64,000 nucleotides of DNA from Chiloscyllium plagiosum. Taxonomy: Eukaryota. The DNA lies in contig NC_057752.1 in assembly GCF_004010195.1 (NCBI RefSeq), positions 7,216,063 to 7,280,062 of the forward strand, in the 5' to 3' direction. Positions 12,314 through 61,460 of this stretch are shown here, one piece after another. The number at the start of each line of letters is the position of its first letter. Position 1 is the first letter of the stretch. The position numbers and the translations under genes are program-made. The notes under the pieces were generated by a model. It searched no databases, was not told the DNA's origin, and saw only the letters and a program-made list of their open reading frames with translations.

Positions 12314-12524
12314 GGAAAAAGTGAGGACTGCAGATGCTGGAGAGCAGAGTTGAGAGTGTGGTGCTGGAAAATCACAGAGGCTGGGCAGCATCTAAGGAGC
12401 AGGAGAATCGATGTTTCGGACATAAGCCCTTCATCATCAGGAATGAGCCTGAAGAATGCTCATTCCTGATGAAGGACTTATGCCTGAAACGTCGATTCAC
12501 TTGCATCTCAGATGCTGCCTGATT
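12314..12524. mobile_element. Fold-back Penelope-type mini-element with hammerhead motifs on both strands
   Basis: 11-bp TSD cacatgcagag (12303-12313, 12525-12535); inverted arms; CTGATGA...GAAAC(G/A)TC on each strand. Confidence 0.8.
12462..12497 (+). ncRNA. Minimal type I hammerhead ribozyme motif (stem II partly decayed)
   Basis: attc CTGATGA a ggac ttat gcct GAAA CGTC gatt. Confidence 0.55.
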
Positions 12525-14799: not shown

Positions 14800-15209
14800 C
14801 TGAAAAAGTATTGGTTAAGTGTCAGAATGAATATTGTCGGTAAAAGCTCACAACATTTTCCCCATGCCAAACATTTTTAGCTTCAGGATAACATGAGGTG
14901 TTCAGATTTCCAATATTGTCTCTATTTTATTTGTGTCTAAAGCTCAAAATTCAAGGAGGCAGACTTCATGACTTCAGCTACAGGTAAAGCAAACATCAGG
15001 ACTTGAAGTAGCCTGTCACGGATTCATAGAACACTTGTTTTAAAATAAGTAGCTAAAATGAATTTCAGCCCCAAAGTAACTCAAATCTGTACAATAGTGG
15101 TTCACTAATAAGGATCTTTTCTATATATAAAAAGGAGAAAACTCTGATGTGACAACAATCTGAATTCCAAGCAGACAACATATTTCAGGCATTTTACACT
15201 TATATACAG

Positions 15210-15428
15210 GAGGAGAAAGTGAGGTCTGCAGATGCTGGAGATCAAAGTTGAAACTTTATTGCTGGAACAGCACAGCAGGTCAGGCAGCATCCAGGGAACA
15301 GGAGATTCGACGTTTCGGGCCCAGGCCCTTCTTCAGGAATGAAGAAGAGCCTGGGCCCGAAACGTCGAATCTCCTGTTCCCTGGATGCTGCCTGACCTGC
15401 TGTGCTGTTCCAGCAATAAAGTTTCAAC
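15210..15428. mobile_element. Young fold-back Penelope-type mini-element (90-bp inverted arms, hammerhead motif)
   Basis: 15-bp TSD tacacttatatacag (15195-15209, 15429-15443); arms 15246-15335 and 15340-15429 with one mismatch (15348); GGAA loop. Confidence 0.9.
15305..15340 (-). ncRNA. Minimal type I hammerhead ribozyme motif
   Basis: Minus strand attc CTGAAGA a gggc ctgg gccc GAAA CGTC gaat: intact core, 4-bp stem II, palindromic ACGT stem III, GUC site, attc/gaat stem I. Confidence 0.75.
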
Positions 15429-16252
15429 TACACTTATATACAGTATTGGCAAAAATATTTAACCAGTAACATGCTATATACTACAACAACTTGGATAATA
15501 GATGACTGGCAGAGAGTTTTATAATTCATTCAAAGGGCTATGAAAAAACAAGCAAAATTCAGGTAGTTATAAATGCTGGCAAGACCTCAAGATTGAATGA
15601 ATACTTTAAATTCACTGACAACATCGTTATTTTTATATTGCATGTGTCTAAACAATTTAAAAATGTCAATTCCTAAGTTATATACTGTTGTCATGATAAT
15701 ATTAAGAACTTTTAGTACAATATTTAAGTAAAATTAATAATAGAGGACTTGAACATCAATAATAATCACAAAGCTAGTACTAGAATGACAGCAGAACATT
15801 TGGAGTTAAACTAGAATGGCATACACTAAACGTAAAGACCAAGTTGAAATTCACAAGTTACTATGAGGTCCTATGAGGCAATTTGTTATTACCCAAGTTT
15901 CTCCATTGCATTAACTCTGTGGAAGTCAAACCAACTGTTACTATACATGTCATACACAGAACTAATAAAATTGTTGTTTTCCTATCACTTGTGAGGCTCA
16001 GGTGGTTGAAGTACTTAAGATAGTGTCTGTGTTATCATTAACAAATTTCAGTGTCATATATAGCCAAGTTTACAAAATATGGAACAGATCTTCCCCTTTA
16101 GCTTGGATTACAGAACAAGTCATCCCATTCTTAAATACAAATCCACATTTTTACAAATATTTGGGAGATTATGTACGTATGATTAAAAACAGAAAATATG
16201 AGTATTCAAAGATTTTAAAAATCAAATCAGAACTAAATTTAGATACACTTAC

Positions 16253-39855: not shown

Positions 39856-41799
39856 TGAAATATTGGTGCAGGTTTGCCAGTACTGGAGGAGCACGCATAT
39901 TAAATGCTGAGCTTGGCAAAAGGCGACAGCTTCTTTTTAAGTTCCTCCTGGTGCACTGTTTGAGCTTCAAACTCTGGTGTGACGGCCTGTCTTAACTGGG
40001 CAGATCACCGGTTACTACTGACCACATCAGCAGTCATGCCTGGATAACTTTCAGGTACTGCTGGTACTTCTCAAAATCTTTGAGCATATATTCGCCTCAG
40101 TAAACATATTCAACAAATTATTGAGTGGTGAGTGAAGCTCCACTGAAGTGGAGAATGCAACTCATCACAGCAAATGCCCAACAACAGCTCCTTTTTGTTT
40201 TAAACTACTCAAAGGAAAGCCTCATGTTAAATCTTAAATTAAAATGGGTCACATTTCAGTCAAGAAAAACTGAAAATAAGTGAACAGTTTTTTTTTTGTT
40301 TTTACAGCCTCATAACTTCCAAGCAACAAGTTGTTATGGGGAAAATTCTCTACTTCATCGATTTAAAAAAAAGGAATGCTCATGTGACTCAGATTTTTGA
40401 TGAGTGCTTTTTTTTCATGTGGCATATGACACACTTTCAGCTTCACAGAAGAACAAAATACAAACACCGTTCTAACAGAACAGAAATTAAATGTGCATAT
40501 CTTAATGTAAAATCTAAATCGACAGCTTTAAGTTTGAATAGAACACATTGTATAGTCATCCTCAGTATAATGAGGGAACACACTGGCCCTTAAGATGAAG
40601 GTCTTTGAATATAATAATCCTGTAGCCTGCACTAGAAAATGAAGTTTTAGCACAGTCATTGGACAAATACATGGAAAAGTTACTTTACAGTGATGCAAAG
40701 TACAGAGAATGCTAGTTAATGTGAACATTTTGCAAAAGAACTTTTTTTGAACATTACTAATCATTACCTAAGATCATGGGATCATTGGGTGTATAGTTTA
40801 GCTTGGAGCTACCGGTTTATTTTCCCTTGTCCAGCTATCTTCCTCTTTAAGCATTGAAATTCCTTACAAGGCTTTGCTGAGGGGACGTAAACTCTAACTA
40901 GATAGTACTATACCAAAATTTTGATATGCGCTGTAAGTGAGGAGGGTAGGTTCGGAACTAAATAGACAGTGTGCCAAGCACCACAATCTACCCAGAAGCT
41001 ACCTTTTCCAAGGTTGAATGGAATTTCATTTGGAGTTACAAATTCTATTCTTCCTTCTCCCCCCCCCCCCCCCCTTCTCCCCCCCCCCGCCCCACTCCTT
41101 CCACAGATTAAAGTTGGTTATTATCCCAGCTGATGGTAATCCCAGAGTAAAACTGGCTTGATAAACCTTAAGTTTTATGCTTGCAATTTGGTTACCATGG
41201 TGGTCAGTCATTGAACAAATTCACAACAGGCTGCCAAGATAGTTTTAACAGAATAAAACAAAATATATTACACTGAATATTACACAGAAATAAAAACTCT
41301 GACGATTTGAAAAAATCTGGTCATAACATGTCAAAAAGAAAGATTCAATCATTTTTCCGAACAATATCCTTTCCAGACAGATACTCAACCCTGGTGAAGT
41401 ATCATACCTATCTTCATGCTTTAACTTCTTATTCAACTGATGGGTTTAGTGTCATTTACTTTTGGTGAATTTTGGTACATTCACCAGATGTGATTTGCTC
41501 TGTTACTGTGTCTGTATGTCTCAGGAGACAAGGAGAAAAAGTGAGGACTGCAGATGCTGGAGATCTCTCAACTCTTGACAAACAGACACAAGCTAACTCA
41601 CTGAACTCCAAGAGTAAAAACAAGTCAGGGCTTTTCTCAGTCTTGTTTACTTGGACGAAAACAGCAAAGACTTAGACTCCTTTCCAGTTCTGATGAGTAG
41701 ATACTGCCCTTCTGCTGGTATAGATCCTTCTCTCTTAACTGGATTTGTTTGTGGTCTCTCTCCATCTGTTGTGCTGGGTCATAGATATTAAATCAGAAA

Positions 41800-47801: not shown

Positions 47802-48910
47802 ACACGTGCTGGTGTTGGACTGGGATGGACAAAGTTAAAAATCACAACCAGGTTAAAGTCCAACAAGTTTATTTGGAAGTACAAGCTTTCAGAGCGCTGC
47901 TCCTTCATCAGGTAGCTAGTGGGGCAGGATCATAGGACACAGAATTTACAGTAAAAGATCAAAGTCACATACAAGTGATGCAATGTATTGAACAAACCTA
48001 AATTGCTGTTAAGTCTTTAAATACTTAGAATGGCGATGTAGGTTTCGATTGATTAATATGCAAATCCCAGAGCTTCTTTCAAGTCACAATCCAGAGATAA
48101 CTTAAGGTTTTATAAAAGAAAGGTGACATCTCAGCTAAGAGAATACATTAAAGATGTGCGGTTAGAGTCCGTCTGAATCAGAGAGAGAGCAAGAGCGTGT
48201 GCGTGTGTGTCTGTGTGGGTGGCCAGGGAGTGTGTGGGCGTTTGGGCGTTCTTGATAAAGTGTGTGCATGAGTGTGACAGAGTGTGAGAGGGCACGTGTG
48301 TGTGTGTGTGCGCACATGAGAGCAAGACAGAGCCGGTGTATGAGTGTGTAGTGTACACTACACACACATACACACACAACCCATCAGACACACACTCATG
48401 CGCACACCCTCTCACAGGCACATGTAAGTCTATCGGGACAATTTACATTTACAGATACATTCTATTTTGTTCAAAAAGCACACAATCTGTAGGCAGTCAG
48501 TCCATTGACATTTTATAAATTCCTAGTTTGGAAATAGAACCAGTCTGACTCAAGGTTGATATACAGACATACTCTAATCGTACACCTTTAAACGCATTGT
48601 CTGAGCTGAGATGTCAATTCTTTTTAAAATAAAGCCTTAAGTTATCTCAGGCTTGTGATTTGAAAGGAGCTCTGGGATTTACATATTTATCAATCAAAAC
48701 CTACATCCCCATTCTAAGAGATTAAAGACTTAACAGCAGTCTAGGTTTGTTCAATCTATCGCATCAGTTGTATGATACTTTGATCTTTTACCATAAATTC
48801 TGTGCTCTATGATTGTGCTCCACTAGCTACCTGAAGGAGCAGCACTCTGAAAGCTTCTACTTCCAAATAAACCCATCGGACTATAACCTGGTCTTGTGTG
48901 ATTTTTTAAC
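47802..48910. mobile_element. 1.1-kb non-coding fold-back Penelope-type element
   Basis: 11-bp TSD tttgaaataag (47791-47801, 48911-48921); about 340-bp inverted arms; GT/AC-rich centre; hammerhead motif in the arms. Confidence 0.8.
47880..47914 (-). ncRNA. Minimal hammerhead ribozyme motif
   Basis: Minus strand tac CTGATGA a ggagc agc gctct GAAA GCTT gta; palindromic AGCT stem III. Confidence 0.65.
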
Positions 48911-52556: not shown

Positions 52557-52756
52557 CACTGGATAAAGCACAACAGGTCAGGCAGGGTCTGAGGAGCAAG
52601 AGAGTCGACGATTCGTGCGTAACCCTTCATCAAGTCTTACGCTGAATTGTCGACTCTCTTGCTCCTCAGATCCTGCCTGACCTACTGTGCTTTAACCAGT
52701 GCCACACTTTATCGACTCTGACTTCTCTAGCATCTGCAGTCCTCACGATCTCCTAC
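52557..52756. mobile_element. Fold-back mini-element, same family as 15210, opposite orientation, hammerhead decayed
   Basis: 13-bp TSD aaatataaaatgg (52544-52556, 52757-52769); inverted arms about 52554-52609 and 52649-52704. Confidence 0.8.
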
Positions 52757-52801: not shown

Positions 52802-52939
52802 AAAGACAAAGAACTGCAGATGCTGGAGATTTGCAACACACAAAAACAGAAATTGTTGAAGAAACTCAGCAGGTCTGGCAGAATCTGTGGCACGAAGAGA
52901 GAGTTAACCTTTCAAGTCCGGTGACCCTTCTTCAGAACT
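52802..52939 (-). mobile_element. Related single-arm mini-element with a hammerhead-like motif
   Basis: Minus strand agtt CTGAAGA agggtcaccggactt GAAA ggtt aact; shares the actgcagatgctggag end. Confidence 0.65.
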
Positions 52940-53033
52940 TTTAAGTTACCAAGTTCTACTGTCTAACCTTCCTTAATTCACCCACAATTCTGTGCAAACT
53001 GATCATTGGTAGCAAGTTAAGTCACAACTAGAA

Positions 53034-61362: not shown

Positions 61363-61460
61363 TTGAAGGAGGTTCACTGGACTGAAAACGTTAACTCTGC
61401 TTTCTTTCCATGGATGCTGTCAGACCTGTTGAGTTTCTCCAGCAATTTCTGTTTTTATTT
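61363..61460 (+). mobile_element. Decayed single-arm mini-element, same type as 52802
   Basis: tgaaggaggttcactggactgaaaacgttaactctg...gatgctgtcagacctgttgagtttctccagcaatttctg. Confidence 0.6.

Follow-up and report, generated by a model that had tools for sequence, protein, structure and literature searches.

A recent hairpin insertion with a hammerhead motif derives from the pLTR end of a Penelope-like retrotransposon and was probably built from two separately primed cDNAs

Within the window, by which we mean the whole 64,000-nucleotide stretch of Chiloscyllium plagiosum DNA that was analysed, lies a 219-base hairpin carrying a hammerhead ribozyme motif. A preliminary description took it for a recently active, non-autonomous mini-Penelope. 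The locus raises the question of whether such a hairpin is an element of its own kind, copied as a unit, or a product of a larger retrotransposon, and of how its two arms came to be joined. Our reading is that it is probably a recent, 5′-truncated, two-armed insertion of the pLTR end of a Neptune/Nematis-type Penelope-like element (PLE), composed of two separately primed cDNAs, and that it likely arose in this way rather than from a fixed 219-bp master. The parts of the insertion, together with two older insertions in the window, are given below; q numbering starts at the tail end (q1 = 15210, q131 = 15340).

15195–15209, unstranded: left copy of the target site duplication (TSD), 15 bp, an exact repeat that is present as a single copy in the empty-site contig of run X15
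15429–15443, unstranded: right TSD copy, whose first base is also an element base (1-nt microhomology)
15210–15342, minus strand: tail-bearing arm, the pLTR between about +1 and the distal 3′ end site (q1)
15210–15245, minus strand: 36-nt tail between the two 3′ end sites (q1–3 and q36–39)
15340–15428, plus strand: short arm, the other pLTR copy, inverted and running from +6 as far as the proximal 3′ end site (q37/38)
15340–15342, unstranded: 3-nt microhomology joining the arms head to head
15340, minus strand: position +1, the first base of stem I and the presumed 5′ end of the template RNA
15305–15340, minus strand: minimal type I hammerhead with 4-bp stem I, 4-bp stem II and palindromic stem III, called by descriptor, with a predicted cut at 15309/15308
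15255–15260, minus strand: AATAAA of the tail-bearing arm
15415–15420, plus strand: AATAAA of the short arm
12314–12522, unstranded: older two-armed insertion of the same lineage, 74–80% identical, with a hammerhead core on both arms
52559–52754, unstranded: older, decayed two-armed insertion of the same lineage, 74–80% identical

The element itself (15210–15428, 219 bases) is flanked by both TSD copies, which agree at 15 of 15 positions; the chance of a 15-mer being duplicated at both ends is about 2e-6. Its inverted arms (15246–15335 and 15340–15429) span 90 nt, lie 4 nt apart and are 99% complementary with a single mismatch, while the 36 nt of 15210–15245 are unpaired with the opposite arm. 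AATAAA stands on the sense strand of each arm. The longest ORFs in the element (73 aa) are at chance level, and a motif search of it with the usual Pol III A and B boxes returned neither these nor an A-run of at least 5; no tRNA was found in it. The perfect TSD, the inverted arms, the one-sided extension and the lack of ORFs, Pol III boxes and poly(A) had all been described before and were recovered here.

Being short, non-coding and abundant, with inverted arms, the insertion resembles a DNA transposon of the MITE type or a SINE, and such hairpins are easily misfiled by annotators as MITEs or as separate non-autonomous families. We give this classification next to no chance, in agreement with the preliminary description. 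TSDs vary from 10 to 20 bp in length and have no fixed sequence, the ends are asymmetric and form no terminal inverted repeats, the arms correspond to the end of an RT-encoding element, and A and B boxes, tRNA and poly(A) are missing from the element.

On the minus strand, all core parts of the hammerhead described earlier could be located: the 5′ strand of stem I (15340–15337), CUGAAGA (15336–15330) followed by a bulged A, stem II (15328–15325 with 15320–15317), GAAA, the palindromic ACGU, and a GUC ending at 15309 before the 3′ strand of stem I (15308–15305). The copy in the short arm is incomplete, lacking C3 and the 5′ strand of stem I as had been noted, and the single arm mismatch disrupts one of its stem II pairs. 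For the same 36 nt of a parent pLTR, RNAfold predicts stems I and II in a weak fold of about -7 kcal/mol; when two copies of the motif are co-folded, the stem III dimer is not the predicted lowest-energy form. Because an Rfam scan of the window gave no hammerhead family at E<=1 (its miRNA matches were rejected as hairpin artefacts), the call rests on the descriptor and on covariation across families. A core-only descriptor matched 310 times (93 distinct, 55 with a stem II of at least 4 bp) in 773 kb of fetched DNA, a total that is enriched, as the loci had been picked for carrying the element; five shuffles gave 6–11 matches. Three families in the genome differ in the sequence of stems I, II and III and keep the pairing despite this. 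Stem I is only 2 bp long in an older subfamily; an apparent 6-bp stem I in some copies was discarded, its extra pairs being junction bases, and the parent has 4 bp. On these sequence grounds we take the motif in the window to be real. Within the stub it is a passenger, because arm ends do not gather at the cut site and because a whole-stub transcript is predicted to fold as one long hairpin that would mask the ribozyme fold.

The preliminary description had suggested searching for an autonomous PLE with the same pLTR, and one was found. The tail-bearing arm is identical to locus L037 at 130/131 positions and to the pLTR behind a 684-aa RT-EN ORF at locus L143 at 128/131, which substantiates the proposed derivation from Penelope. 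Longer copies run past the hammerhead into a 3′ UTR and then into the end of the ORF. L139 and L143 contain open frames of 674 and 684 aa with RVT_1 (Pfam E 2.5e-7 and 2.7e-6) and GIY-YIG (E 3e-4; 3.9e-6 for the domain alone) in one frame; one RVT_1 score and both GIY-YIG scores lie just below the Pfam cut-off, and the GIY-YIG domain alone passes it. Their translations show two cysteines between the GIY- and YIG-like motifs and histidines downstream, which form part of the definition of EN+ PLEs taken from the text of PMC8557442. The further marks of EN+ PLEs are likewise present: RT with a C-terminal GIY-YIG domain, hammerhead-bearing pLTRs in tandem or inverted, a 30–40-bp tail and a variable TSD. 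RT and EN are connected by a CX4CxxC linker, and a CX2-5CxxC linker marks the Neptune and Nematis clades (PMC8557442); by its linker, the parent would be of the Neptune/Nematis type. A PDB sequence search with the parent ORF returned 0 matches.

In 2/25 loci, belonging to a sister subfamily, the sequence that follows the tail is found some 0.8 kb upstream of where the N-terminal part of the ORF is encoded. Because this sequence precedes the ORF, the parent unit is pLTR – leader – ORF – 3′ UTR – pLTR, seen in pieces: an intact full-length copy was present in 0/18, 0/25 and 0/25 loci, many of them broken by N runs in the gapped assembly. A Pro/Thr-rich 36/72-bp repeat makes up the N-terminal part of the ORF (L244, L267–L291; C15:4034387–4036231) and is expanded to a long array at one place. 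The continuation of this pLTR end into a 3′ UTR and an RT+GIY-YIG ORF speaks against the earlier idea of a non-autonomous 219-bp element of its own kind.

The family is very abundant, as had been surmised. In the 3.56 Gb of genome searched, a 34-mer across the border of tail and arm occurs exactly 10,223 times and an arm 25-mer 19,180 times, and reversed-control k-mers occur 0 times. We drew a sample of 70 copies from the first 73 places listed on one contig, C1; three in one tandem cluster were excluded and examined on their own. Their tail arms show 25 differences in 9,048 bases relative to one natural copy. A 291-nt contig of run X15 (depth 3.7) passes from the left flank to 15209 and on from 15444, carrying one copy of the target, and thus represents the empty site; it is a single contig, from the one of four runs in which the insertion site was covered. 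Both observations support the claim of recent activity, and young copies of this kind are polymorphic markers. Targets are mildly AT-rich (60%). The TSD measures 12–19 bp in 35/40 two-armed copies and 14–20 bp in 24 of the best 25 matches; among one-armed copies it measures 10–20 bp in 14/30, and none of at least 10 bp is present in 16/30.

Not all of the related copies listed in the preliminary description belong to this lineage. Those at 12314 and 52557 are two-armed insertions of it and those at 41528 and 54964 are fragments, whereas those at 52802 and 61363 come from a different hammerhead-bearing family. Two further hammerhead-bearing Penelope-like families, with different stems I–III, are present in the window at 52802–52943, 61363–61450 and 47875–47919.

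The unselected sample comprised 40 two-armed and 30 one-armed copies; the former number is a minimum, as a few complex pairs, L075 among them, escape our rule. The ends of tail arms lie at about q1–3 and those of short arms at q36–39 (31/40), and every two-armed copy combines one end at the tail site with one shorter end. Pairs with two tails were seen in 0/40 cases, and in 0/20 of the copies sharing the window junction, of which 0/20 were tailless on both sides. One-armed copies end at the tail site in 5/13 and at the short site in 8/13 cases. Because the ends cluster at both sites, the tail at 15210–15245 would be the stretch between two internal RT start sites.

We compared the loop alleles of the two arms at 73 loci. 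They agree at 68 and are clearly mixed at 1; the remainder are 3 junction cases and 1 one-base difference, and one further mixed pair was seen by eye. The rare loop allele of the window copy is present on both of its arms, and likewise on both arms at 4 further loci. Its presence on both arms points to one RNA or one source locus, as a cDNA folding back on itself would also predict. At L021 and L014 the arms carry different loop II alleles, one of those at L021 being that of the older subfamily, which may reflect two templates or later conversion. A G-to-A change in stem II occurs in 8/25 best matches (window position 15349; L002, L007, L008, L010, L015, L016 and L019), on one arm only per copy, on either arm and with either loop allele, and in 1/100 listed copies with the window junction; it is possibly a slippage hotspot beside a GAA repeat. 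The unrelated loci L085 and L086 share an odd junction in which a stem II fold-back piece and an A-run precede +1.

At their other end, the arms stop at a wall. Among 109 arms (one further arm was dropped for ending in N), 77 end at q118–133, including 30 early ends at q118–127 and 31 ends at q130–131, and 10 pass q140. Of the arms that reach q128, 47/61 end in q128–133; the end rate is 0.185 per base at the wall, compared with 0.003 before it and 0.01 beyond q140. Genome-wide, 8,658 arms hold +1 to +33, with 2,073 ending exactly at +1 and 4,179 within 5 nt. The wall is soft, in that 4,479/8,658 arms continue past +1. Ends defined by ribozyme cleavage were rejected: only 3/109 arms have their end 2 nt or less from the cut site, against 1.6 expected, and for this reason the templates were likely uncleaved. 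A splice acceptor at +1 was rejected too, there being no AG. Position +1 is the A of a perfect initiator-like hexamer in the parent, matched to what we take to be the initiator consensus. Transcription of Penelope starts within the pLTR (PMC2377424, PMC8557442). We infer that the wall reflects run-off at the RNA 5′ end. In RNA run X19, 375 reads were found, 84% of which continue into unrelated sequence, and they showed no pile-up of starts; RNA run X20 contributed 0 reads. In a check for cap-derived G at +1, 4/12 G cases were untemplated, and untemplated non-G cases were about as many.

Could there instead be a 219-bp hairpin master whose transcripts the Penelope protein copies as a whole? The window junction was found 235 times genome-wide (in an estimated 4% of two-armed copies), inverted composites with a captured 124-nt piece share junctions (at 4, 3 and 2 loci), and tandem hammerhead units of 224 and 320 bp exist, all of which such recopying would explain. 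Yet in the first 20 listed copies with the window junction the tail is split 9 to 11 between the two arms, which rules out a one-tailed master almost entirely. The commonest centre junction accounts for only 4/40 unselected pairs and involves 3 nt of microhomology, the 30/70 one-armed copies end at the same wall, and promoter boxes are missing, so that the chance we leave to this reading is slim. Its strict form, a derivative spread by a fixed master with one junction and one orientation, was rejected on the varying junctions and the 9 to 11 split. A 224-bp tandem unit was likewise rejected as the stub master: such units reach q145 and hold 79 nt behind the tail that are absent from stubs. One-armed copies, varying junctions and the tail on either arm also speak against the mini-Penelope family of its own that had been proposed. 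Because the window junction bears the tail on either arm, the hairpin was likely built at each insertion. One way of building it is from a single cDNA that folds back on itself, or from an antisense RNA that primes itself, with the endonuclease resolving the product at either site to leave a one-sided tail, and with the arms becoming uneven through jumps at the hairpin centre or through deletions there at a later time. Penelope palindromes and tails are interpreted along these lines in the texts of PMC3846280, which favours self-priming for Penelope inverted repeats, and PMC8557442. Agreement with it comes from several junctions at stem II (L044, L059, L075, L085, L086), a place at which a cDNA might fold back, and from variants mostly mirrored between the arms, although these fit twin priming as well. 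Snap-back of one cDNA is disfavoured because it cannot give non-nested arms: in 22/40 pairs the short arm outreaches the tail arm in the 5′ direction by at least 5 nt, and in 13/40 by at least 10 nt. Moreover, a hairpin is not required for either end, since both end sites and the 5′ wall are found in one-armed copies as well, and in vitro both sites are RT starts (PMC11167929). We consider snap-back decidedly unlikely.

The wall itself could be an effect of structure, left by a 5′-to-3′ nuclease trimming the RNA to the folded hammerhead or by an RT that falls off on leaving stem I. It coincides exactly with the 5′ edge of stem I, conservation in a second family drops just 5′ of its stem I (11 copies), and the cap-G check gave no clear signal, as this explanation would have it. 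It is nevertheless unlikely in our judgement, given that the site is a perfect initiator-like hexamer by the consensus assumed above, that the fold is weak (about -7 kcal/mol), that a block to RT is expected 3′ of a structure, and that a third family (41 copies) has no sharp wall. Twin priming on uncleaved RNA with 5′ run-off is favoured because it accounts for the pairing of tail and short ends, the non-nested arms and the ends at stem I rather than at the cut site.

According to this twin-priming reading, the RNA would start at +1 in the upstream pLTR, at the initiator-like site. The element endonuclease would make a staggered cut about 15 nt wide, and each cut end would prime RT inside the RNA, one using the distal site, about 131 nt from +1, and the other the proximal site, about 95 nt from it. 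With priming near the RNA 5′ end, synthesis of both cDNAs would stop by run-off at +1 or slightly before it. Their 3′ ends would then anneal through 1–3 nt of microhomology and be filled in, giving a hairpin with a one-sided tail; if only one end were primed or kept, a one-armed stub would result. The template would likely be uncleaved, and the hammerhead would not set the ends. The idea of twin priming comes from LINE-1 work, in which two cDNAs primed from both ends of a staggered cut are joined by microhomology and an inversion results. Two end-primed cDNAs joined by microhomology are the shared feature; in LINE-1 one priming occurs at the poly(A) and the other at a variable internal position, whereas here both sites would be fixed and internal, 36 nt apart. 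In its fullest form, the proposal reads the stubs as a genome-wide record of Penelope insertion, in which a 15-nt staggered cut is primed at each end by a dimeric RT-endonuclease, on uncleaved RNA and always at a different one of two fixed sites 36 nt apart, with run-off near the RNA 5′ end at a transcription start site that is the first base of the hammerhead; we advance this tentatively, with confidence somewhat short of even. If true, inverted pLTRs and tails would be products of twin priming, and ‘solo pLTRs’ would be strong-stop-like copies of the mRNA 5′ end, not truncated copies of the 3′ end. About 10^4 near-identical young stubs allow counts that separate insertion models, and these counts favour twin priming and a fixed 5′-end run-off.

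As an element, the insertion is ordinary. Penelope insertions with an inverted truncated copy, a 30–40-bp tail, a TSD and a minimal hammerhead follow a published pattern, and the accounts in PMC4209133, PMC3846280 and PMC8557442 uphold the preliminary description in treating hammerhead-bearing and inverted pLTRs as established. Pen2a of Adineta vaga (PMC3846280; overview in PMC8557442) shares with our element the head-to-head inverted 5′-truncated copy, the one-sided tail of 30–40 bp, a variable TSD, an initiator-like pLTR motif and solo pLTRs. It differs in that here the entire insertion consists of two pLTR stubs, in about 10^4 copies, with a longer TSD (mode 14–15 bp) and a sharp 5′ end at stem I. 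We found no census of such two-stub insertions in the main texts of the open literature. What our analysis adds is the pairing of tail and short ends, the non-nested arms and the 5′ wall at stem I. PMC8557442 describes the way in which Penelope inverted repeats and tails form as undefined, and in the main texts of the open literature we found no paper on twin priming in Penelope or on a hammerhead 5′ wall, although Fig. S2 of PMC11167929 may bear on this.

The closest experimental parallel is Poseidon of Anolis carolinensis (PAc). According to the text of PMC11167929, its RT has two internal start sites in vitro, which flank the tail and lie about 95 and 131 nt past the hammerhead, as in our element. 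Cutting and extension take place on both target strands, and ribozyme mutants integrate as usual, cleavage being unneeded for insertion. PAc is of the Poseidon type with an ORF that starts in stem II (PMC11167929), whereas our element has the Neptune/Nematis CX4CxxC linker, no ATG in stem II and the mildly AT-rich targets. With the minimal hammerheads of metazoan PLEs (PMC4209133) it shares the full core, a bulged base before stem II, G10.1-C11.1, a palindromic 15.2-16.2 and a short stem I. Many solo hammerhead copies and opposite-strand pairs 100–700 bp apart have already been reported there; sharks are not named among hosts of hammerhead-bearing PLEs in the sections of that paper covered here. 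For the whale shark, an expansion of Penelope-like elements has been reported (bioRxiv 10.1101/443036).

Animal non-LTR retrozymes, as described in the text of bioRxiv 10.64898/2026.07.22.740005, are likewise non-coding, derived from Penelope pLTRs and equipped with a type I hammerhead. They are head-to-tail tandems with two complete hammerheads, however, whereas the window element is head-to-head with one complete motif, and we rejected its classification as a retrozyme. The description does suit the 224- and 320-bp tandem units at other loci of the family. Head-to-tail 224-bp units made of hammerhead, tail and a 79-nt leader occur at L064:2797–3434 and L065:2939–3804. A recurrent, internally deleted 320-bp unit, in which the leader is joined to the 3′ UTR, is found at L107–L118 (about 1500–1820) and L148:1841–2490; it has several breakpoint variants, and a first look for its leader piece gave 1,188 candidates. 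Larger inverted composites recur with identical junctions at unrelated places (L041, L051, L198 and L213; L217–L219; L187 and L197), which sets limits to the case against fixed stubs. In most of them a pLTR cut at q27 is followed by one and the same captured 124-nt piece, and they look recopied as units. Because composites recur and tandem units exist, recopied non-autonomous forms do occur in this family, hairpin masters among them; the window element shows no sign of being one.

With each arm, an AATAAA enters host sequence. At L148:2134 (q37), an A-run directly follows the short-arm end in 33 reads of the poly(A) RNA run X19, and the AATAAA of the element likely acts there as the poly(A) signal of a host transcript.
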